DNA of 64,000 bases. It comes from an uncultured Chthonomonadaceae bacterium. Its GTDB lineage: Bacteria; Armatimonadota; Chthonomonadetes; Chthonomonadales; Chthonomonadaceae. Below, one piece after another: positions 29,765 to 46,832 of the stretch (position 1 is the first letter of the stretch; the number at the start of each line of letters is the position of its first letter). The notes under the pieces are model-generated. The model ran no database searches. It was not told the origin of the DNA and saw only the letters and a program-made list of their open reading frames with translations. The stretch covers positions 64,001-128,000 of the forward strand of contig CAWFQB010000009.1 of assembly GCA_963817895.1 (NCBI GenBank), in the 5' to 3' direction. Made by a program: the position numbers and the translations under genes.

Positions 29765-31095
29765 CATAAGTGTCGAAAGCCCGCCTGCTTGCCTTATTTT
29801 GGCTAATCATCGGGTACAAATGGCGTTGCGCACAGCACCTGGCGCGTCCATACACGGCAGTCTTCGGCCAACCAGAACTTGACGGAACGCCAACCCCGAT
29901 CAATGCCCGTCTGCTGTTTGTACCAGATCAGCAGCAAGGCGGCAATCAGGCTCATATAGATCATGATGGTGATGCCGTTCTCGTTGCGACTGAGCAGGTG
30001 ACTATACGAGAGGTGTTGCTTGACAAACTTGAAGAACACCTCGATGTCCCAACGGGAACGGTACAGGGCCGGGATTTCAGCAAAAGTATACAGACCTGCG
30101 TGTTGCCCGTCCTCAGACACGGGCAAGTTGGTCATCAACACGAGCGGCAGCCACAGGTTGCGCCGTTTGTCAAAGCGCAGACCGTGTACCAGCACCAGCG
30201 GCATCCTGTCCCAACGCGCTTGTTCCTCCTGCGTTTCTTGATTGTTGCCAAACACCGCCTGCTGCACCTGTACCAGCACAAAGTCCGGTTCCTGCGCTTG
30301 GGGCGCTTGTGTGGGCAGACACTGTGGGGCGGCTTGCCACAGCGTTTGCACTTGCTGAAAGGCTTGTTGGCTGTGCGGCGTCAGCCAGAAACTGCCCGCC
30401 TGATGCAGCCGCGGCAAACGGGAGCGGTCATGGCAGCCTTTGTCGAATATCCAGAAATCGCCGGGTTGGGTATGCGCCAGCATGGTATTGCCCAGCGCCA
30501 CACAATCGCTCTTGTCGGACTTGGATTTGCACACCTTGAGTAACTGTGGCAGGCCCTCCTGGGAGAGTTCCACGACGCTCTTGACATGGCGCAGCGTCTT
30601 GTCAGGATTGGTCGTCTGATTGGACAAACCAAACGTCAGGAGCTTGGCCGACAGCGTGACCGTGGTGGCGTCAATGCGGCGCAAACGCAACGTCTGTGCC
30701 GTTGCCGGGGTGATCTTGGGAGACAACTTGGCGTACAGGTCGCCAAACAGGTCGCCAAAATAGGCCGGAGGCAACTTTGCCAGACACTTGCCCCAACTGC
30801 TATGGTCGCTACGACTGCTATGGTCGCTACGACAGCCCGTTTGCTGCTGATACGTTTCCTCCAGCACCCGCTGGCTCAACTCAGGATGGTTGAGCAGCCC
30901 ATTGAGCAGGCACAAGAATACGACGGGGCCGGGCAACCGTACATTAGGGTGTACATCTATTTCATAGTGACACGCCAGTTGTTCCAAGCGTGTCAGGGGT
31001 ACAAAGTCAAAGAGTTTTTTCAGAGCAATCATGCTCTGATTTTACAACCAACGGGGCGTACTCGCAAGTGAACGAGCGGGCTTTCGACACTTATG
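29765..31095 (-). mobile_element. IS4-family insertion sequence, 1331 bp
   Basis: 20-bp perfect TIR CATAAGTGTCGAAAGCCCGC; 10-bp TSD CAGCAAGCAG (29755-29764, 31096-31105). Confidence 0.9.
29803..31032 (-). CDS. IS4-family DDE transposase
   Basis: IDATT, IFDKG, LYRSRWDIEVFFKFVKQHL (Y-x2-R-x3-E-x6-K signature). Confidence 0.9.
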   Translation of the reverse strand: MIALKKLFDFVPLTRLEQLACHYEIDVHPNVRLPGPVVFLCLLNGLLNHPELSQRVLEETYQQQTGCRSDHSSRSDHSSWGKCLAKLPPAYFGDLFGDLYAKLSPKITPATAQTLRLRRIDATTVTLSAKLLTFGLSNQTTNPDKTLRHVKSVVELSQEGLPQLLKVCKSKSDKSDCVALGNTMLAHTQPGDFWIFDKGCHDRSRLPRLHQAGSFWLTPHSQQAFQQVQTLWQAAPQCLPTQAPQAQEPDFVLVQVQQAVFGNNQETQEEQARWDRMPLVLVHGLRFDKRRNLWLPLVLMTNLPVSEDGQHAGLYTFAEIPALYRSRWDIEVFFKFVKQHLSYSHLLSRNENGITIMIYMSLIAALLLIWYKQQTGIDRGWRSVKFWLAEDCRVWTRQVLCATPFVPDD

Positions 31096-31150
31096 CAGCA
31101 AGCAGCGCCCCTACAACGTACCCTGTCATTCTGCATTGACGCCACGCTAA

Positions 31151-32451
31151 GGGACTCTCAAGAATTAAACTGTTCCATTGGCAACGGTGTCGGGTCGTAT
31201 CTCGACGAACCACTTGTCCAAGCCGGGTAGTCGGCGTACCTGTGTCTCGACAGCCTTCATGGCTTTCTGGCTCAACTTGACCCCGATGGCGTAGGTCGTT
31301 TCCAGCAACTCCACGCTCGGATGCTTTCCCTTCCAGGTCATGGAGCGGGCAAAGTTGACCACGGCGTCTACACTGTCGAGCAAGTCGCCATTCCAATGGT
31401 TCTCCAGAACGCCCCAACAGCGTTCGATGGGATTGTACTTGCTGTGGTAAGGCGGATAGTACGCCAACTGGATGCTCAGCCCGGTTTCGGCGACAAACTG
31501 CACCAGCCGATGCAGGAACTGCGTACGTCGGCTGTGACACTCCGGGCCGTTGTCGAGGTTGAGGTGCAGCGTCTTGATATGGGCGAAGCGGACACGATTG
31601 GCTTCCCACCAATGCTGCACAATGTCGGCCAGACAGTCACTCGTCACCTTGGAGGTCACCGCATACAAGGCGAGTTCGTCTAAAGACGGCAACAGCAAGC
31701 CCGACCGGCGTCACCTGGGCGTCGGGATGAAAGTCATGGTCGGCGGCATGGACCTGCACCCGGTTCTTGCCACCACGGGAATACTCGCCTACCTTGACGG
31801 TCGCCTTGGCATCCAGCGAGACCCGCAAGTCATCGGTTCGGCGTCGGCTTGCGGGTTGACCTGGCTCAAGTGGTCAAAGATGGCGTCGGTTTCGGCGATC
31901 TTTTTTTGGGTTGGCTCTTCTGCACCTTCTTGGGATGGTAGCCCAAGAAGGTTGAGCTTGTCGCCGAATGGTCTCCTCACAGGGCAGTTCGGCGTCCGTA
32001 TAGCCTTTTTGCGCAATCAATTGACGCCGCACTTCGGCAGCCGTCAAGCGGGTATAAAGCCGGTTGTTACGAAACTGCGGGTCGGTCTGGCTTTGCCCAT
32101 CGACAAGGGCACGGATGTCGTCAAGCAGATGCGGCAAATGCGCTTCGGCAGGTTTGCGTCCGCGCAGAGCGAAACGCATCGACACAGGTGAAGCCGCTAC
32201 GCAGTTCATGGGTGCCTTTGCGAATGGTATCGCGGTTCCAGCCGAGTTCGCGTTGGGCGAGGCGCTGCCCGCCTGCGCCGAGTTCTGCGACGATGCGTGC
32301 CATGAACAGGCGGCGGGCACTGCCTTTGAGCGTCTGGGCGGTTTCTCTGAACACGGACTTGAGACTATCCGTAAGTTCCACTGAGCCACTCCTGCGTTAT
32401 ATTAGCAGGTTCTTCCATATTTAGTGGCATACTTTAATCTTTGAGAGTCCC
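31151..32451 (-). mobile_element. ISAzo13-family insertion sequence with a frameshifted transposase (31165-32381)
   Basis: TIRs GGGACTCTCAAGAATTAAA / TTTAATCTTTGAGAGTCCC, TAA direct repeats; motifs SLDAKA, DNGPE, YYPPYHSKYNPIERCWG. Confidence 0.85.
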
Positions 32452-35542: not shown

Positions 35543-36805
35543 TCACGCATCCAAAATCAATATCCAATCCGGGCCACTCGGAACCGGGGGCGTGAATTCA
35601 TGCGTGGTATTGGGATAATCGCCGCCGGGTGTTACTTTGCCGCTGCGCGGATCGTACCATGAGGCGCGGAGGGAGTTGCCCGCCAGTCTGCTCAGGTCAA
35701 TGCCTGCGGTCTTGTGCAGGGGGAAATACACAAAAGCGTAATGGCCGTGTTCGTCCCGCGTGGCCTGCAAATGCTCCATGCCCTCGCCCTGCCCGGACGC
35801 AATCAAACTCTGGTCGGGAATACGGGACAGAAACGGACGCGACTCCAGCAGATGCCGAACATGAAGCATCTGGTTCGCGCCCGGCAATACTAAAGCGTCC
35901 TTCCAATCGGTACGCGCCGAAGAAACCGCCGGGAAATCCGCCGCGCCCAAAAACTGCCAGATGTCGTGACAGCCATACGTGTGCCCGCAGGCTCCCGCGA
36001 ACAGGTCCCAGTACGCGAATTTGCGAACGTCGTGGGCGTCCAGAAAGCCGTTCTTCGGATCGAAGCTGCTCGGATGGTCTTCGTAGCCGGGTTCCGCGTC
36101 CAGACACGGCTTTGTGGGCGACAGCGCGTAATCGTGAGCAATCGAGTTGTAGCAGTCCCGGTTACGAACATGCCCCGTCTGGTACATGTTGAAGTCCAGC
36201 CAGTCGGCATGATGAAAATATTGCGACGAGGTTTGCTGCCCCTGCGGATGAAATGTTTGCAGATGCGCCCCGCCGTCGCCCGCCTTCAACCCCGCCGCCA
36301 TGTTCCGAATAATGGCTGTATGCGTCTCGGTTTCAACCGGACGGTCCCCGCCAAGTATCCAGATAATGGGTTTGTCGCGATAACGTTTGCCCAAAAACTC
36401 GCCCCACCCGAAAGCGTTTTCGGGCGTGAACAACTCCGGCCCTGCGCCCCACTTTTTGTTCCACTTGTCGCCCCACGTCGGCAGCATCCCCGTCCATATC
36501 TTATGCGAGGCGGCTTTATCTACAATATAATCCACATGCTGAAAGTACGCTTCCACAGGCTGCTTGACATCGTTGTTGACCAGCGGCAGATGCCCGTACG
36601 GATTGGGCTTATCGAAGCCATGTTCAGCAAGAACAACGGCCTGAATCACGGTAAAGCCCTGCTTCGCCCGCGTCTGTAGATAGTGATCGGCCTGTTCGCG
36701 GTTCAGCCGGTGAAACAGTTCCCATGCGGTATCGCCCAGATAAAAGAACGGCGTCTGGTTCTCATACACCAGAAAACGCTTGTTGTCGCTCACGCGCAGT
36801 CGCAT
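35543..36805 (-). CDS. DUF4038 / GH140 apiosidase-like protein with a C-terminal putative collagen-binding domain
   Basis: PFFYLGDTAW, QGFTVIQAV, IIWILGGD, KPCLDAEPGYE, GHTYG, WYDPRSG. Confidence 0.85.
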   Translation of the reverse strand: MRLRVSDNKRFLVYENQTPFFYLGDTAWELFHRLNREQADHYLQTRAKQGFTVIQAVVLAEHGFDKPNPYGHLPLVNNDVKQPVEAYFQHVDYIVDKAASHKIWTGMLPTWGDKWNKKWGAGPELFTPENAFGWGEFLGKRYRDKPIIWILGGDRPVETETHTAIIRNMAAGLKAGDGGAHLQTFHPQGQQTSSQYFHHADWLDFNMYQTGHVRNRDCYNSIAHDYALSPTKPCLDAEPGYEDHPSSFDPKNGFLDAHDVRKFAYWDLFAGACGHTYGCHDIWQFLGAADFPAVSSARTDWKDALVLPGANQMLHVRHLLESRPFLSRIPDQSLIASGQGEGMEHLQATRDEHGHYAFVYFPLHKTAGIDLSRLAGNSLRASWYDPRSGKVTPGGDYPNTTHEFTPPVPSGPDWILILDA

Positions 36806-36880
36806 CGTTGCTCCCTCATCAGGTTGTTAGTTGTTAGTTGTTAGGTCAATGCGGGTACGCGGCGTTGGGGAAGGCTGTTC

Positions 36881-38083
36881 TTATGGTTCGCTGATAACGC
36901 CAAGGAACAGCAGCGCATCGGAATCGGAATTTACAATCGCGCAAACAAACGGGCGGTCTGCGACAAAATTAAAGCGCGGCGCTTCGACATAGGCGCAGCC
37001 GGCAGTCATTTCGATTGCGGTAACAGCCGCCGCCTCTGTGCCTTTCTCATTAACTTCGACAAAGGCGCGATGTTTGACGCCGGTGAGGAAGAACTCCTTT
37101 GCCAATCGCTCAAAATCTGCCTGCGGCCACTCAAACGCTATGCCCATTCCCATGTTTGCAAGAGGCTCACGTAGTTCTACCGCGTAATCAAGGCGGAAAC
37201 GCGGCAGGGCGATGTCGCCCTCACACTCCTGCATCTGCGTTCGATAGTTATTCCAATTTTCCGGCGTGAGTTGGGTCAAAAACCTGTCCATGCGGGTTTT
37301 AGGGTCCGGCAGCAGTATCCGCATGTGAAACCGTTCGCCTTTGTAGGGCAATTGAACGGCCTGAAAGTTTTTACCCTGATGATACAAGTACGCGCCGCCC
37401 TGACGCATTTGCGGACACGTTAGTTTTCTGCCGTCTTCACAGGCGAACAGACAGTAGCGCGTCAATCCTTTCTCAAATGGATCACGCCACAGGCCTTTGA
37501 AATAGATCGCGTTGAGCAGAATGGCATCGGTATCCGCCATGTCCTCATCCCTGACAATGGAGGGTATTTTGCCGTTCGTCGCCTGCGAAACCCACTGGTT
37601 GATAGACGCTGCGGTTTCCGGCAACACGCCGACTTCCGCGCGATAAATCTCCTTCAAACCGCTCACCACTTCCGGGTTGAACACGAACGGCTTGCGGACA
37701 AACAGAGCGTTCGCGATACGCGCCTGAACGCCCTCCTGCGTCGCGTCGAAACTTTGCAGCAGTTTGGCATTGAATTGGTTCAGGGCTTCCAAAGTAGTGT
37801 CGCCAAGTTGAAGCGCCTGCGCCATTGCCTGCCGCGTTGTGCCGCCCGCGCCGTTGTACACCATTTGCAGCGCGAGCGCAATGCTGACGGGCGAGAAAAA
37901 TACGCTCTTGCCCTGCTGTTGTTTGCGCAGTTGGGCAAGCAGAGCGAATCCGAAAGCATTATTGGCGGCTGTCAATTGCGCGTCACCATCCAACAAATCA
38001 GTAGTACCTTCCTGATTGGAGGATTGCTGAGAATCTTGCTGCTCGTGCCAGGGCCAAAATCGTGTCCTTGAATGGTCAGCCAT
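36881..38083 (-). CDS. Serpin family protein
   Basis: FFSPVSI, LNAIYFKGLW, EVNEKGTEAAAVT, FVADRPF, LLFLG. Confidence 0.95.
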   Translation of the reverse strand: MADHSRTRFWPWHEQQDSQQSSNQEGTTDLLDGDAQLTAANNAFGFALLAQLRKQQQGKSVFFSPVSIALALQMVYNGAGGTTRQAMAQALQLGDTTLEALNQFNAKLLQSFDATQEGVQARIANALFVRKPFVFNPEVVSGLKEIYRAEVGVLPETAASINQWVSQATNGKIPSIVRDEDMADTDAILLNAIYFKGLWRDPFEKGLTRYCLFACEDGRKLTCPQMRQGGAYLYHQGKNFQAVQLPYKGERFHMRILLPDPKTRMDRFLTQLTPENWNNYRTQMQECEGDIALPRFRLDYAVELREPLANMGMGIAFEWPQADFERLAKEFFLTGVKHRAFVEVNEKGTEAAAVTAIEMTAGCAYVEAPRFNFVADRPFVCAIVNSDSDALLFLGVISEP

Positions 38084-38180
38084 GTTCGTTTCGCCTCCCT
38101 GATATGGATATGCGACGTACTGGAAACGCGCGTTTGTTCGCCAACCGGCAAAACTAACGACCAGCCACTAACCACCCACT

Positions 38181-39104
38181 TCACGCTTCCAGATAGCGAA
38201 TATCCTCTTCGGTCAGCGTGACGCCGATGGCGGGCAGGCTGGATTCCAGTTCCTCCACTGTGCGCGGGCCGAACAGGGCGAAGACCGGAAACGGCTGATG
38301 CAGCACATACGCGAGGGCGATGTTGTTGGCCGTCGCGCCGTGTTTTGCGCCGATCTCCTGCGCGCGTTTCAGGCGTTCCCAGTTCTGGTCGCTGTAAAAG
38401 ATGCGCTCCACATCCGCGTTGGTATGTACATCCGGCGTATAGCGTCCTGTGAAAAAGCCGCTGGCCTGCGCCGACCAGGGAAAGAGGGGGAACTGGTGTT
38501 CCTTATGCCACGCTTTGCCCGCCTCATCCAGTGTCACGCAACCCGCCCACATCGGGCCGGAGGGGACGGCAAAACTCAGGTGTGGACTGCTGGCGACGAA
38601 GGGCTTCAAGCCGTACATTCCGGCGTAGTTATTCGCTTCCTGTATGCGTTTGGTTGTCCAGTTGCTGCCGCCGAACGCCCGAATTTTGCCCAACCGGCAC
38701 TGCTCATTCAAACACTCCACAATCGGGCCGACAGGAACGTTCGGATCGTCGCGGTGCAGCAGGTACAGGTCAATGGTTTCGATTTGCAGCCGATTCAGGC
38801 TTTCGGTCAAATCGGCCAGTATCGCTTCCGGGTTGACGCGCGAACCATTGCTGTCGTGGTGCGCTCCCTTGTCCAGAACAACCATCTTCTCGCGGTTATT
38901 GTCCCGGTTGAGCCAGTTGCCGACTGCCCGCTCGCTTTTGCCGCTCCCATAAATATGCGCCGTATCCAGGCACGTTCCGCCCGCCGCCACAAACGCATCC
39001 AGCAGGGCGTTCGTCACGTCCTGATTGTCCGGCGAACACGCCATTGTGCCAAGTACCAGTTCCGAAATCGGCTGTTCCAGACCGTCTACGCTGCCGTGCT
39101 TCAT
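38181..39104 (-). CDS. Aldo/keto reductase
   Basis: LVLGT, DTAHIYG, SLNRLQIETIDLYLLHRD, GKIRAFGGSNW. Confidence 0.9.
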   Translation of the reverse strand: MKHGSVDGLEQPISELVLGTMACSPDNQDVTNALLDAFVAAGGTCLDTAHIYGSGKSERAVGNWLNRDNNREKMVVLDKGAHHDSNGSRVNPEAILADLTESLNRLQIETIDLYLLHRDDPNVPVGPIVECLNEQCRLGKIRAFGGSNWTTKRIQEANNYAGMYGLKPFVASSPHLSFAVPSGPMWAGCVTLDEAGKAWHKEHQFPLFPWSAQASGFFTGRYTPDVHTNADVERIFYSDQNWERLKRAQEIGAKHGATANNIALAYVLHQPFPVFALFGPRTVEELESSLPAIGVTLTEEDIRYLEA

Positions 39105-39241: not shown

Positions 39242-40060
39242 ATGGCACGAAGTATGAGCATACGAAATAGTACGACAATGCGGGTAGCGGTCACTCTGGC
39301 GCTGACAACGCTGACGGCAGGAGGCATTATTCGGCTGCGCTTGCCGGTCGGAGTGAACGCGCAGCAGCAAGCGAAAGAGCGCGCGCTGACGCCGCCGGGC
39401 ATGGTGTACGTGCCGGGTGGCGAGTGTCTGCTCGGCAGCGATGACCCGGACAAGGACGAGGATATTGCGCCGCTGCACCGCGAGAACGTGCCCTCGTTTT
39501 ATATGGATCGGACGGAAGTGACCAATGCGGAGTACAAGCGCGTCGTGCCGTCTCACGAGTTTCCGCTTGGGGAAGCCAATCTGCCGGTCACGAACGTAAT
39601 CTATGCGGAAGCCGAGGCATACGCGAAAAAGGTGGGCAAGCGGTTGCCAACGGAAGCGGAGTGGGAAAAGGCGGCGCGTGGCACGGACGGCAGGAAGTTT
39701 CCGTGGGGAAACGACTTTGATGCCAATCGAGTTGCAAGCCGCGCCCACCCCGGCAAAACCCTGACTTCGCGCCCGTCCATGGTGAAAAAGCCCGGACAGT
39801 GCGCTATCGGCACATCGCGGGTTCGCCCGGTGGGAAGCGTCCCGTCCGGCGTCAGTCCCTACGGCTGCGTGGATATGGCGGGCAATGCGTGGGAGTGGGT
39901 ACAGGGCTTCAATCAGGGGAACCAGCAGCAACGTTTGTTACGGGGCGGGGCTGTCGGCTACGGTCAGCGCGACCTGCGCACGTATTCTCACGCCATCGAA
40001 GGCGCGGAAGCAACGTGACGCGACACCGGATTTCGCTGCGCGAAATCAATCAACAACTGA
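39242..40060 (+). CDS. FGE-sulfatase (SUMF1/EgtB/PvdO) domain protein, probably read through UGA 40016-40018 (candidate selenoprotein)
   Basis: EVTNAEY, RLPTEAEWEKAARG, DMAGNAWEW, RGG; in-frame continuation after the TGA is RDTGFRCAKSINN-stop. Confidence 0.8.
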
Positions 40061-40109: not shown

Positions 40110-40140
40110 AAGCCGCTTGAAGCACTGGCTTCAAGCGGCT
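40110..40140. terminator. Terminator hairpin between the FGE gene and the tRNAs
   Basis: AGCCGCTTGAAGC / GCTTCAAGCGGCT stem. Confidence 0.65.
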
Positions 40141-41352: not shown

Positions 41353-42113
41353 ATGTCCGAGCAGGCATTACCAGAAGCGAGTTCCCCATTGGGGCTGGCC
41401 GGGTTCCAAACCGAGGGGCGAACGCGCGAACCGCAAGTCGAAGCGCAGGTGCAGCGCCTGCTGCATACGCCGCAACACCGCGTTCTGGCGCGAAGCCCGG
41501 CAAGCGGATCGCAAATCCTCCGAATGGGTGCAGGAAGAGACGCTCGTTTGTATGCTGCGCATCTGGAACCGGAGTCGCGAACCGAGCGGATAAGGAAAAT
41601 GCGTGGCATATAGCCGACCTGCTTCTGGAACGCAGCGCGCGGTTCGTGCATCAGCATGTCAGCTGCTGGAAACTGTCGCCCCAACACGTAGACGACTGCA
41701 AGCGCGACATTCAGGTGCAGATGCTGCAAGACCTGTTTAATGACAGCCGGGGTTGTGAGTTCTGGGAAGTGCGCTTCTGGCTGTGTCTGAAACGGCGATT
41801 GCTCAACATCGTGCAGAAATACCGGGGCATGGCGCAGGCCGAATTCGCGCCCGCGCCCCTCGAAGATGAAGAGGGACACGCGACTGACTATTTTGAGCGC
41901 GTGGCCGATGGCGAAACCCTGTCGGCGCACGAGCGCGTGGAGGTGCGCGAAGCCCTGCGCGTCCTGCCCGAACAGGAACGCAAAGCCTTCGTCCTCTACC
42001 ACTACGAAGACTGGTCACAGGAACAAATCGCGGAAACCCTACAGGTCACGGATAGAACCGTCCGCAACCTGCTGTCACGCGCGCAAAAACGACTGGAAGA
42101 ATGGCGGACGTAG
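41353..42113 (+). CDS. ECF-type sigma-70 factor (frameshifted N-terminal half)
   Basis: Region 4 LPEQERKAFVLYHYEDWSQEQIAETLQVTDRTVRNLLSRAQKRL; region-2-like FWLCLKRRLLN. Confidence 0.8.
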
Positions 42114-42319
42114 AGGAAGAGAGAGAAAAGGCGACAAGTTGAAGAGGCGATTTTTACCATCTGTTCTTTATCTCTTTCTTGGCTGTTCTCCTTTTCGTCC
42201 TTGGTGGTGAAAATTTTATGTCACCTTTCCGGTTTCGTTTCACGCGGCATAGTAGCCCTATCAGCAAGCCGCAATGCGCGGTTTAGAATTTTAATTGAGC
42301 AAGACAAACGGGTGATCCA

Positions 42320-42974
42320 ATGAACCAGTATCAATACCGCCGACACAGAGCGGCAGCAGAACGAAAAAGACATAATTTTTGCCGATTGGAGCGAAGACCG
42401 GCAGAGCGCCACGCCGCAGACCTTGCGCGACATGGCTGAACCGATATCCGCAGTATGCCGATGAATTGATTGGCTGGGCGGCGGACGCGCCCACACTGGA
42501 ATGCGCGCTGGAAAATGCTGACGCCGGATTTAGCGGGCGGAAGCGCATACGCTGGCAATCGGGCGCAATGTTCTGGCGGAAATGCGAACGCGCTATTTTG
42601 CCGCGCTGGAAACCGCGCCGCAAGCCCGCCATCGAAGATCTGATTCAGGCCGCAAAAGCGCAGGGATTGACGCCCAAAACGCTTGCCGCGCAAATCGGCG
42701 TGGGCTTGCCGCTTAATCGCCAAATTGCAGCAGCGATTGATTCGCCTGTCCACCATACCCGAAGAACTGGTAAACCGGCTGGCGCAGGCGCTGGATACGG
42801 GCGCGGAACAGGTACGCGCGTATCTTGGCGCGTCCCACCACGCTGGCGGCGGGAGCGAGCTACAAGTCCGATGGCGTCCCGCAGGCGGCGCAGGCGGAAG
42901 ATTTTGACGCGGCGGTTCGCGCCTGCACGGATATGAACGCGGAACAAAAACAGTTCTGGCTGGAACAAAAGTAG
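42320..42974 (+). CDS. XRE-like HTH protein / possible anti-sigma factor (several frameshifts)
   Basis: Fragments join as ...LNRYPQYADELIGW...AAKAQGLTPKTLAAQIGVGLPLIAKLQQRLIRLSTIPEELVNRLAQAL...QKQFWLEQK. Confidence 0.6.
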
Positions 42975-43129
42975 AGCGAGACCAAAGGCAGTTCGGTAAC
43001 TAAAGAAGTTCTCGCAACTTTAGGAGAAAGGAAGACGGAGGTTGGGGGCTATTCGGGTAAAATATGATATACTCTGCGTGTCTGAAACGGTCTCTGCACG
43101 TTTGTTTAAATTTGGTTTTCAGGAATGTC

Positions 43130-46100
43130 ATGCCCGATTGGAACGCCCTGCGCCGCCGCGCTTACGAACAGCATTTGCAGTTGCGCGTCTTTCTGCCCCA
43201 AGACGCGCCCCTTCTGCCGCCCGCCGAAAGCCTGCTGGAAGCGGCGGAAACAGCGACGGATGTAAGCCGCGTGGCCGTGCCGCCCGGAGATGGCCTGCTG
43301 GCGGGCGCTCATGCCGTGCTGGATTGCGACATTCCGGGCATCTGGTACGCGAGTGGGCCGTCCGTCAGCCGTTCGCGGCAGTTGTTCGCGCAGGCGCACG
43401 AGTTTGCGCATTTCTGGCTGCATCCCGAAATCGGACACGACCAGTGCTTTGCCGATGATACGCCCGACGCTTTTGCCCCGCCCTCCTTCCGCCTGCCCAA
43501 CTCCCAACTTGCCGAAGGGTACAGCCACAAAGAGCGCCGCGAATCCGAAGCCAATCTCTTCGCGGCGGAACTGCTGCTGCCCGGCCCCATTCTGCGCCAA
43601 CTGTTCCTCGAACACGGCTGGAAAGCCAGCCGCATCGCCGCCCACTCCGGCCTGTCTCTCTCCTGCGTCCTCACGCAACTGGCAAGCGCGTTGCTGTTAG
43701 GGGAAGAAAAGGAGAAGAGGAGACAAGGACAGGGAACAGGGAAAAGCAGCAATTCGACAATCCACAATCCACAATCCACAATCAATTCATCCTTCAATCC
43801 TTCAATCCCTCATCCTCGACTTGACACAGCCAACGCGCCGCCGCGCATGTCGAACACGGGCCGGTTCTGGTGGATGCGGGGCCGGGAACGGGCAAAACGC
43901 GGACATTGATTGCGCGTATTTTGTTTTTGCTGACGGAGCGGAATGTTGCGCCGGAAAACATTCTCGCGCTGACGTTTTCCAACAAAGCGGCGGAAGAGAT
44001 GCACACGCGGCTGCGGCAGGCGGTGGGCGATCTGGCGGACCGGGTCTGGATCGGCACATTCCATGCGTTCGGCACGGGAACTGCTGCGCAAAGAGGGAAC
44101 CCGCATTGGCCTGCCTCCCGCGCCCGAACTGCTGGACACGCCGGACGCCATCAAACTGCTTCAGGACAATCTGGATCGGCTGCATCTGCATCATCTGGAA
44201 TACCTCAGTTTTCCCATTCTGCCCTTTCCCGACATTCTGAATTGCATTTCCCGCGCCAAAGACGAACTGAAAACGCCGCAGGATTATGCCCTTGCCGCGC
44301 AGCAGCAACAGATCGCGGTAGACCCACACGCGAAAAAAGCGGAGTTGGAAAAGCATCTGGAAAACGCCGCTAAATCGCAGGAGGTGGCGCATGTCTATGC
44401 CGTGTATCAGGAGTTGCTGAAGCGGGAGGGCAAACTGGATTTTGGCGACCTGATTATGCGGAGCGTGGAACTGCTGGATACGTGCCCCGACGTTCGGGAG
44501 CGATGGCAGGCGCAGTACCCGCATATTCTGGCGGACGAGTATCAGGACATCAACCGGGCAAGCGCGCAATTGGTGCAGCGATTGGCGGGAGACGGGAAAG
44601 GGATTGTGGGCGGTCGGGGATTTGCGGCAGGCGATCTATCGGTTTCCGGGGCGCGTCGTCCGCGAACGTGCGCAAGTTCCACGAGGATTTTCCGGGCGGG
44701 CAGCGTATTCAGCTGGAACGCAATTATCGTTCCCGGCCTCGCTTGTCGCCATGTTCGGCGCGTATGCGAGTGGCATGGCAGGCACAACCGCAACGTTTTC
44801 CGACTGGCAGCCGCAGCGTGAATCAGCAGCGATCTAACGGAGAAAATCCCGCTGTACTGGTTGCGGTTGCCGACAATGAGGACGCGCAGGCGGCGGGATT
44901 GGCAGATGCATATTCGGCAGGCGGAAGCAGGCGGCGTTCCGCTGCGCGATCAGGTGATTTTGTGCCAGACACATCGGCAGGCGGCGGGATTGGCCGAACT
45001 GCTCGGCGCGAACGGGATAGAAACGCAACACGCAAGCGGGTTGTTCGAGCGCGAAGAAACCAAAGACCTGCTGGCGTGGCTTGCGCTTGCCTGTGAGCCG
45101 GAGGGCAGCACACTGGCGCGAGTGGCGCGTTTTGCCGAGTACGATGTGCCGCAATCCGATGTGTTGACGTTGCTTGCCAGCGGCGCGCGACGCGGCGTAA
45201 GCAGTTTCCCGCCGCGCTGCTAATGGCAAACGAATTAGCGGAAGTGTCGGAACAGGGGCGGCAGGGCTTTGCGCGGATGTGGCGGCATCTGGAACCGTAT
45301 CTGTATCATGGCACGGCGTGGACACTGCTGGCGGGCTATCTATTTGAGGCAAGCGATTACCTGCTTCCCCTCCTGCGCGACGAATCTGTAGCGGGACGGC
45401 AAAAACTGCTTGCCGTTCACGAACTGCTGGTCGTTGCGCTGCGACTGGCAAAACGTTTTGAAGTGGAAGAGAATCAGCAGGCGGCTTTGCTGAAACATCT
45501 GCGCTTTCTGCGGACATGCGGGCAGGAAAAAGCCCTGCGCGTATCAGGGGATGACGCGGAACTGGACGGCGTTCGCCTGATGACCGTTCACCGAAGCAAG
45601 GGACTGGAATTCCCGATTGTGTATCTGCCTAATCTGGTAAAAGGGCAGTTTCCGCCGAAGAAGCAGGGGCGCATGGTGTCGCCGCCCGCCGCGATGGCTG
45701 AACGAGTCGACCGTAGAAGACGGCGAAGAGGAGAACAGCGAAGCGGAGTGCCTGTTCTTTGTCGCCCTGTCCCGCGCTCGCGACATGCTGGTGTTGTCGC
45801 GCCCCCTGACATGGAACGGCAAACCCGCGCAGCCAAGCCCCCTTCTCACGGATTGCGAGGCCGCGCTACGCGCCTGTGACGCGCAAAATATGCGTATGGG
45901 AAACTAGCCCTCAACCCCCAACCCTTCTCCCAAAAAGCGTGGGAGAAGGGGAGTGCGTCAGTGGACGGTGAGACGCTGCCTCAAGTGCAGCTGTTGTTAC
46001 CTTACGCAAGACGCGGAGTCCAATGCGAATGGAGAGCTTAATGCGAACGTGATAAATCACGCGCCTACGAATGAGGTTGCGCATATGTTGCGGAAGCGAC

Positions 46101-46832
46101 TCTGAGGATGTGTCACCTTTGCAAGCGAACCTTTGACGCTTTCCGCTTCGGCGGTGGAGCAGTATCGCAGGTGTCCGCGCCAGTATTATTATCAGCGGGT
46201 GTTGAAGCTGCCGCAGAGCGGGGAGGAGGGGGCGTACCTGACGTTTCACAACAGCCTGCAAGAAACCGTCGGCTGGCTGCAAGCCGAACGCGCCGAGGGT
46301 CGGACGCCAACCGAACAGGACGCGCAGGACAGGCTTCACGACAGTTTGGAACGGAAAACGCGATGCGCCCAACACGGCCCATGCGCGGGTGCTGAAGGAG
46401 AAGGCATTGGGACTGTTGGCAGCCGCGCACGACAGCGTGCCGGGCGTCTCCGAAGCAGGCCGGGGCGTGGAACTGACGGCGCAACTGGAGCATGGCGCGG
46501 TAAAAGTGCGCGTGGATTCGGCGGAACAGGACGCGAACGGCGAATGGCGGCTCACAACCTACAAAGCGCAGCGGGACAAGGACGACCACACGAACCCGCG
46601 TTTGTCGCTCGCCCGCCACGCCGCCCGCCAACAATCCGACCGTCCCGTACAGATCGTCTTAGGATACATGGACAATGGCGAACAGCGCGAAATCGAGGAA
46701 AAGCCGCGCTACGAACCCGACCGTATCGCCAAGTACAATGAAGCGCTGAAGGCCATCCGCGAAGAACGGTTTGAACCCAGTCCCTCGCAGGAGTGCAATT
46801 CCTGCCCCTTCTTCCTAATCTGCCCATTATAA
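43130..46832 (+). CDS. ImmA/IrrE metallopeptidase - UvrD/PcrA SF1 helicase - PD-(D/E)XK nuclease fusion (many frameshifts)
   Basis: AHEFAH + EANLFAAELLLP; AGPGTGKT, TFSNKAA, DEYQD, GDLRQAIYRF, NYRS, MTVHRSKGLEF; SASAVEQYRRCPRQYYY ... ECNSCPFFLICP. Confidence 0.75.
45908..45953. repeat. REP-like CCCTCAACCCCCAACCCTTCTCCC...GGGAGAAGGGGAG element (second copy at about 53265-53311)
   Basis: Near-identical hairpin-forming element present twice in the window. Confidence 0.7.

Follow-up and report, generated by a model that had tools for sequence, protein, structure and literature searches.

We describe a gene of an uncultured Chthonomonadaceae bacterium that almost certainly encodes a selenoprotein built on the fold of the formylglycine-generating enzyme (FGE). 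Judged from sequence and its conservation, the in-frame UGA at codon 259 would be decoded as selenocysteine (Sec) by way of an in-frame bacterial SECIS element (bSECIS) and the genome's SelA/SelB/SelD/tRNA-Sec system. Decoding would complete the last core strand of an FGE-fold domain, probably membrane-anchored and facing the periplasm, and would place a selenol on the wall of what in FGE is the peptide-binding groove. We propose that the protein would be a redox enzyme working outside the cytoplasm, with Sec259 as its reactive nucleophile. This residue would attack an oxidised substrate (a peroxide, disulfide or sulfoxide), Cys187 would resolve the oxidised Sec259 to a selenenylsulfide, and a periplasmic thiol system would reduce the latter again. 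For this proposal as a whole, from Sec decoding to extracytoplasmic redox turnover with Cys187 as the resolver, we estimate a probability of roughly 0.48.

The features concerned lie in the window, that is, the whole 64,000-nucleotide stretch of DNA that was analysed:

39242..40060, + strand: full selenoprotein gene, 272 aa with Sec259, from the reading frame and its PF03781 match
39257 and 39278, + strand: alternative ATG starts of the gene
39284..39334, + strand: N-terminal hydrophobic stretch after basic residues, a probable signal or membrane anchor, from hydropathy windows
39392..40045, + strand: FGE-sulfatase domain PF03781 of the FGE-type C-type-lectin fold, from the HMM, an AF2 model (pLDDT 92.2) and structural matches
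39443..39463, + strand: acidic loop D68-x-D70-x-D72-x-D74, with Asp or Glu in 127/130, 130/131, 123/130 and 127/131 alignment rows
39800..39802, + strand: Cys187 in a variable insert, candidate Sec partner, Cys in 129/129 of the alignment rows that have a residue here
39959..39961, + strand: Tyr240, invariant (131/131), aligned with the catalytic Cys336 of human FGE (1y1e)
39998..40015, + strand: E253-G-A-E-A-T258, putative groove wall before Sec, its Glu and Thr invariant (131/131 each)
40016..40018, + strand: in-frame TGA decoded as Sec259, with no codon but TGA or Cys in homologs, at the human FGE Ala358 column by alignment
40029..40047, + strand: bSECIS with 8-bp stem and 3-nt loop within the GFRCAKS codons, loop G at +23 (U of UGA = +1)
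40058..40060, + strand: true stop codon TGA

From the ATG at 39242, the frame runs through 258 codons to the TGA at 40016-40018, continues with RDTGFRCAKSINN and ends at the TGA at 40058-40060; homologs terminate (TAA, TAG or TGA) a few codons past the GFRC motif. A preliminary description of this DNA had read the ORF as a candidate selenoprotein, and its coordinates for the ORF, the TGA, the stem and the loop were all reproduced on re-reading the sequence.

The codon at the Sec column was compared across a sample of 401 genomes from the phylum Armatimonadota, 63 of which matched at E 1e-30 or better. Thirty-five make up the subfamily (the 34 best, at E 2.5e-49 or better, and one partial gene at 64% identity), and the remaining 28 matches, scoring lower, were taken for ordinary FGE-domain paralogs and left out. 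Within the subfamily, the column is TGA in 26 genomes (families f1, f2, f8 and f14) and TGC or TGT in 8; in the last one, a contig end cuts it off. Metagenomes were searched with a pattern in which the neighbouring residues were fixed and the column was left free. The 85 hits, which carry no taxonomy, comprise 51 unrelated sequences and 34 FGE-like ones (near-duplicates included, three judged by eye), the latter with TGA in 23, Cys in 11 and no other codon. Across these hits and the subfamily genomes in which the column can be read, neither Trp nor variable residues occur there; it is TGA or Cys only.

Ordinary relatives differ. The matches listed from GTDB cover 80 loci with 83 FGE-like domains, three of which are subfamily members (2 TGA, 1 Cys); the other 80, used as an outgroup, have 17 different residues at the column and Cys in none. 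Relative to these 80 listed domains, the sulfur or selenium atom is therefore specific to the subfamily. In the phylum of the Verrucomicrobiota member no Sec form was found, as 2 of 301 genomes matched the pattern and both have TGC. A profile search of the whole library returned 202,257 hits, mostly multi-domain FGE proteins, and ESM Atlas gave generic PF03781 clusters only. As a separate observation, 36 of the 85 metagenome hits (e.g. L132, L137, L143) are one near-identical string, non-coding in the matched frame and with rearranged flanks, that recurs in many unrelated JGI metagenomes; it is possibly a spike-in or a small contaminant element.

The Sec machinery, whose presence would bear directly on the reading, was found in the genome (7.48 Mb, 81% complete): selA (517.7 bits), selD (364.2 bits, with an in-frame TGA of its own), tRNA-Sec (63.9 bits, anticodon TCA) and, in frameshifted pieces, selB, the best piece of which scores 222.5 bits vs a cut-off of 242.25. 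Because the assembly has other frameshifted genes, the split of selB is likely an assembly indel error. No other tRNA with a TCA anticodon was called in the genome. Loci outside the window are:

C3:161301-162242: selD with in-frame TGA
G000:C14:204962-206852: selB in pieces across reading frames (L002, L005, L008)
G000:C4, TGA at about 511540, + strand: fdhA-like selenoprotein gene, SECIS loop region G22-G23-U24

ARAGORN also called a tRNA-Cys with anticodon ACA (G000:C1:603139-603212) and a 72-nt tRNA with anticodon CTA labelled Pyl (C11:90528-90599), which may be errors, pseudogenes or unusual decoders.

Across the sample, selA was detected in 25 of the 26 TGA genomes and 1 of the 8 Cys genomes, and in 215 of all 401. 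The remaining TGA genome, G374 (86% complete), gave no selA hit and has a tRNA-Sec. Since six of the nine genomes without TGA belong to one family, the selA contrast stems from a few changes rather than from 34 independent cases; relatedness among the genomes means that both this contrast and that of the SECIS rest on few evolutionary events. The explanation that G036 has the Cys form because its selA is broken was rejected, the flagged TAG being the normal stop of that gene. Four genomes with no selA hit contain genes of 95-97 nt (L240-L243, at G176:C109, G250:C243, G158:C387 and G397:C123) that score 59-63 bits on the tRNA-Sec model but whose anticodon is GCA (Cys). Cys tRNAs resembling tRNA-Sec in this way are known from earlier work; here they co-occur with the Cys form of the selenoprotein gene.

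The hairpin begins 10 nt past the TGA, with arms at 40029-40036 and 40040-40047, and its TGC loop (40037-40039), 18 nt past the TGA, has G at position 2, just as first described. In PMC13188914, the bSECIS model has a loop of 3-9 nt, a stem of 4-16 bp, a spacing of 16-37 nt, G in loop position 1-2 and an MFE of at most -7.5; the present hairpin falls within it, as its loop is 3 nt long with G among the first two positions, its stem 8 bp, its spacing 18 nt and its MFE below -7.5. The common loops in that source are of the GG or GU type, whereas the loop here is UGC. Taken alone, the hairpin is only modestly unusual, with a folding energy of -9.5 kcal/mol (z -2.07) that 8 of 200 shuffles equal. 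Because it overlaps the GFRCAKS codons, we asked whether the peptide forces the hairpin; random synonymous recoding at genome codon usage gave all 8 pairs in 2.5% of cases and all 8 as Watson-Crick pairs in 0.5%. Only 17 of the 3,991 TGA-ended frames of at least 200 codons in the genome passed the hairpin filter, the selenoprotein gene and the fdhA-like gene among them. The SECIS of the latter has a G at +23, the same position as in the selenoprotein gene. In E. coli fdhF, G23 is a SelB contact.

Pairing was counted over distinct 39-base stretches beginning at the TGA/Cys column. All 8 pairs are present in 34 of 39 TGA forms, and at least 7 in 37; among the 15 Cys forms, none has 8 pairs and one has 7. 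Stem cells are paired at 97.8% in TGA forms, a value as high being reached in 0/500 shuffles, vs 62.5% in Cys forms (275/500). One pair is compensatory, A-U in 20 and U-A in 13 of the TGA forms, with changes on both sides; this switch may amount to a few events only. It couples Gly GGA to Ser (20 times) and Gly GGT to Thr (13 times) six residues on, and so offers an example of a SECIS overlaid on a conserved protein motif, where RNA pairing ties a Gly codon to the choice of Ser or Thr. Phe is encoded by TTT in 37/39 TGA forms and 6/15 Cys forms, the genome-wide share being 44%. From the UGA to the stem, codons vary in the manner of coding sequence, with Asp as GAC 29 times and as GAT 10 times. 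The SECIS proposed in the preliminary description is thus borne out, in that the hairpin is kept in TGA forms and not in Cys forms and its geometry lies within the bSECIS model.

These observations largely refute the reading in which the TGA would be a genuine stop or a Trp codon, or else the product of a sequencing error or of pseudogene decay. In its favour, the assembly does contain frameshifted genes, selB included, and G374 gave no selA hit in spite of its TGA. However, the same TGA recurs in 26 genomes of at least four families and in 23 metagenome contigs, and it swaps only with Cys; the codons past it vary as coding sequence; the one TCA-anticodon tRNA called is tRNA-Sec, which G374 has too; and a stop here would delete terminal core strands of the predicted structure. 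Reading of the UGA as Trp was rejected on the Cys swap, the SECIS and the lack of a matching tRNA. Sec insertion has therefore passed the tests run on it, namely a column with TGA or Cys only, the presence of the machinery, and a hairpin kept only in TGA forms.

A tree was computed on the domain up to but excluding the Sec column, with 53 subfamily rows and 8 outgroup rows. All 39 Sec rows fall into one branch (97/92) with two Cys rows nested within, and 12 Cys rows are its sister (100/98), such that two changes at the column suffice. This topology, whose root is set by long-branch outgroups, is consistent with Sec having arisen once and having reverted to Cys at least once. A locus named as Armatimonas groups in the tree with genomes of the sampled phylum, in keeping with its being Armatimonadota. 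A Cys form outside the tree (L146) keeps 7 of the 8 stem pairs, which would fit a recent reversion.

Read through, the protein matches PF03781 over residues 51-268 (E 9.7e-45, 153.6 bits vs a cut-off of 23.3) and reaches the last of the 255 model positions. AF2 model 1 covers residues 41-272 (pLDDT 92.2); model 2 is that of a Cys form, L044. Structural matches of model 1 (Foldseek, VIA) are CalU17, FGE, TvpA and pFGE at Z 24-26, the VIA Z being 26.3 to CalU17 and 24.9 to T. curvata FGE. Ending the chain at T258 would cost the model its last two strands, and the C-terminal strand in this fold is a core element paired with the first strand (PMC6328139). Among the best 120 database proteins of those listed (the present one included), 112 stop at the Thr before the column and 8 go on with Cys. 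Gene callers have cut these 112 at the Sec codon, a systematic annotation error that costs the last core strand and that the present reading corrects.

The best 13-residue hydropathy window scores 1.69 and starts at residue 15. Because such a window is found in 100 of 105 scorable homologs and a lipobox-like LxGC is seen by eye in some members (L038-L042), the domain is probably outside the cytoplasm, membrane-anchored and facing the periplasm, in line with the export suggested earlier. The acidic loop, conserved as listed above, is a possible cation site.

Alignment to human FGE places Tyr240 at Cys336 and Ala237 (131/131) at Ser333, and keeps Trp299 as W217 (131/131). Leu245 aligns (HMMER) with Cys341, gap placement being uncertain, and this column is Cys in 93/131 members. 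The FGE CxxxxC pair is missing, as had been noted at the outset, with Tyr240 and Leu245 in its columns; by alignment, then, the protein belongs to PF03781 but is not an FGE, as the copper-binding pair is absent. T258, U259 and D261 correspond to Ser357, Ala358 and Asn360 of human FGE (numbers counted from Cys336). In a docking study (PMC9241360), Ala358 and Asn360 are named as active-site contacts; Ser290 of T. curvata FGE hydrogen-bonds the substrate Arg (PMC6676471), and its equivalent would be T258, going by the numbering offset. Because its column aligns with Ala358 and contact residues are adjacent, Sec259 is predicted to sit on the wall of the FGE substrate groove. The residues W217, Y240, E253, T258 and D261 around it are invariant in the 131-row alignment.

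A groove so equipped might instead hold a soft metal or metalloid (Cu(I), Hg, Ag or As(III)), with Sec259, Cys187 and, in many members, Cys245 as ligands: the FGE-like thiolate metal site would have been rebuilt at another place on the groove, with a role in oxidative catalysis, in metal handling or in sensing. We hold this to be a serious if rather doubtful alternative. In FGE, Cu(I) is held by two Cys together with the Cys of the substrate, according to PMC6676471; the equivalent of its Trp, W217, is invariant; and the Cys341 column is Cys in the 93 members just mentioned. Yet that column is Leu in the present protein and variable elsewhere, the first copper ligand is replaced by Tyr in 131/131, and genes for metal resistance or copper do not recur among the neighbours scanned.

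On the redox proposal, the partner of Sec259 would be Cys187. The preliminary description had pointed to a lone Cys in an insert, which might pair with Sec in a redox or metal enzyme. The insert Cys is indeed Cys187, but it is not alone, for Cys62, Cys209 and Cys266 are also in the protein. It is present in 40/40 Sec forms and 9/14 Cys forms; the other five are distant forms with a short insert, which keep the column Cys without any insert Cys, so that not every form has a resolving Cys. Model 1 shows isolated beta-bridge marks at its positions 146 and 218, which directly precede Cys187 and Sec259, respectively. In model 2, where the insert is of low confidence, neither of these marks is seen, whereas the other five isolated ones are there again. 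Because the two appear and vanish together across models, we presume that they are paired, which suggests that the chalcogens are brought close; this is read off the secondary-structure string of one model. The claimed pair thus fares unevenly: Cys187 is kept in every Sec form, whereas 5/14 Cys forms lack it and the bridge pattern occurs in one of two models. The Sec-Cys187 pairing is, in sum, weakly suggested by the models.

Two further readings accept Sec insertion and dispense with redox turnover. In the first, which we think quite unlikely, an Se-S bond between Sec259 and Cys187 would have a structural role, or Sec259 would act as a redox switch of a lectin-like surface that binds a ligand. 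Many matches to the FGE fold are non-catalytic or binding proteins (pFGE, PorK/GldK, TvpA, Mtd), and the compartment is probably oxidising. Upkeep of Sec and a SECIS across several families would, however, seem costly where a disulfide would do, the column Cys persists in forms without the insert Cys, and the invariant Y240, E253, T258 and D261 around Sec look like an active site. In the second, Sec259 would act as a nucleophile in covalent catalysis of a non-redox kind (hydrolysis or group transfer). The existence of Cys forms without a second conserved Cys would suit this, as would the invariant Tyr, Glu and Asp around the column; but Cys187 is kept in 40/40 Sec forms, and Sec is rare in non-redox enzymes, which makes it very improbable. 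For the redox proposal we note that most uncharacterised selenoproteins are likely redox proteins according to PMC13188914.

The gene stands alone, divergent from an aldo-keto reductase gene and convergent with tRNA-His and tRNA-Arg. Upstream on the - strand (window 35543-39104) are genes for the aldo-keto reductase, a serpin and an apiosidase-like glycoside hydrolase. Between the gene and the convergent tRNA-His, at 40111-40140, lies a perfect 13-bp inverted repeat with a 4-nt loop that is terminator-like by eye; it is absent from the output of the promoter and terminator scan, the matches of which are at chance level. Farther along (window 41646-46832) are an ECF sigma factor, an ORF with an IrrE/M78 domain and then, by eye, UvrD-like helicase fragments in shifting frames, a region that looks like one long gene broken by indels. 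Transposase-like ORFs, part of them in pieces by eye, occupy 29803-32389.

When the loci of 54 family members were clustered in search of a conserved operon, neighbours proved to be kept only within genera or families. The one neighbourhood that recurs across genera is that of a single clade (L028, L031, L035, L130, L149, L165, L173, L185, L198), where a PspA/IM30 gene and one for a DnaJ-domain protein are oriented divergently to the selenoprotein gene. The neighbour scan covered 120 ORFs, comprising every one of the 100 selected around Sec forms and 20 of the 68 selected around Cys forms. Among these 120 there was no sulfatase, no recurring redox gene and no recurring metal-resistance or copper gene. 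With neighbours kept only at such close range and no sulfatase nearby, context gives no substrate. Against a redox pair, too, the 120 ORFs include no conserved neighbour or redox partner, save for a redoxin-like gene upstream at L224. That gene (L224:9852-11201, in G012) is AhpC/redoxin-like, split in two ORFs and directly upstream of a Sec-form gene; it may itself be a selenoprotein.

The neighbourhood also bears on whether the protein is an alternative FGE that matures sulfatases with a selenium-containing copper site, which we regard as highly improbable. Its fold and groove are those of FGE, and the genome has four sulfatase-family matches while CxxxxC is found in 0/5 of the other PF03781 matches in the stretches read. 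Nevertheless, both CxxxxC and the Ser333 equivalent are missing, no sulfatase is among the 120 neighbouring ORFs, and the protein looks exported, unlike bacterial FGEs, which act in the cytoplasm, before export. Moreover, the genome is 81% complete, and the count of candidate maturation enzymes covers PF03781 matches, not radical-SAM maturases.

The family is absent from the catalogues compared, PMC13188914 (as far as its text was available) and NCBIfam. Table 1 of the former, a 2026 review, lists 119 families with no row naming PF03781, FGE or SUMF1, and these words are absent from its text as searched; the families of Haft and Tolstoy 2025 were covered through the rows of this table, and the groundwater candidate list (its ref. 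66) lay outside the comparison. No NCBIfam model (June 2026) was passed by the protein, all scoring far below their cut-offs (the EgtB/SenA/OvoA/PvdO/GldJ/GldK equivalogs at 19-79 bits vs 350-544). The main text of the BSepDB paper (PMC13326102) has no FGE-fold family; its family list, Table S2, lay outside the comparison and bears on the claim of novelty. Literature searches, with subscription journals mostly outside their coverage, listed no article that describes a selenoprotein of this fold.

The selenoproteins characterised so far are mostly thioredoxin-like according to PMC13188914, whose catalogue as compared has no FGE-fold family, and the present protein would add a new fold to the bacterial selenoproteome. 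It would also mark the catalytic atom in one of the very many FGE-like proteins whose function is to be found, with natural Sec/Cys pairs for comparison, and makes function testable at a defined atom, Sec259. More speculatively, and in our view improbably, a lineage of the FGE/C-type-lectin fold may have built a sulfur/selenium site on the groove, with Cys first and Sec once, within Armatimonadota, via a SECIS in the GFRC motif; with Cys187 it would form a selenolate-thiolate copper site or a redox pair, a periplasmic chemistry new both for the fold and for selenoproteins. If true, the protein would in effect be the selenium counterpart of FGE.

Like bacterial selenoproteins with an in-ORF bSECIS (e.g. 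FdhA, SelD), the family has an in-frame UGA aligned to Cys, a model-fitting hairpin and co-occurrence with selA; unlike them, it has neither CxxU nor UxxC, the candidate partner Cys being 72 residues upstream. It resembles FGE itself (human SUMF1 1Y1E; T. curvata 5NYY/6S07; S. coelicolor 2Q17) in fold, with about 200 residues superposed at an rmsd near 2 A (Z 23-25), in its GNxWEW and GFRC motifs, and in a reactive sulfur or selenium atom predicted on the substrate groove. It differs in that Cys336 is replaced by Tyr, Cys341 by Leu (Cys in 93/131) and Ser333 by Ala, in having Sec at the Ala358 column, and in its probable N-terminal anchor and the lack of sulfatases among the neighbours scanned. 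CalU17 (6VQP), pFGE/SUMF2 (1Y4J), PvdO (5HHA), GldK/PorK and TvpA (2Y3C) are, like the present protein, single FGE-type domains without the FGE catalytic pair, and the structure matched best of all is that of CalU17, at Z 26.3 and with 34% of the aligned residues identical; at the Sec column, however, pFGE has Ser and CalU17 has no Cys. The sulfoxide and selenoxide synthases EgtB, OvoA, SenA and OvsA are two-domain iron enzymes of about 400-470 aa. They use selenium substrates and are not listed as selenoproteins, whereas the present protein is single-domain and scores 62-67 bits against their cut-offs of 360-420; what they have in common with it is an FGE-like domain, through which SenA and OvsA link the fold to selenium chemistry.
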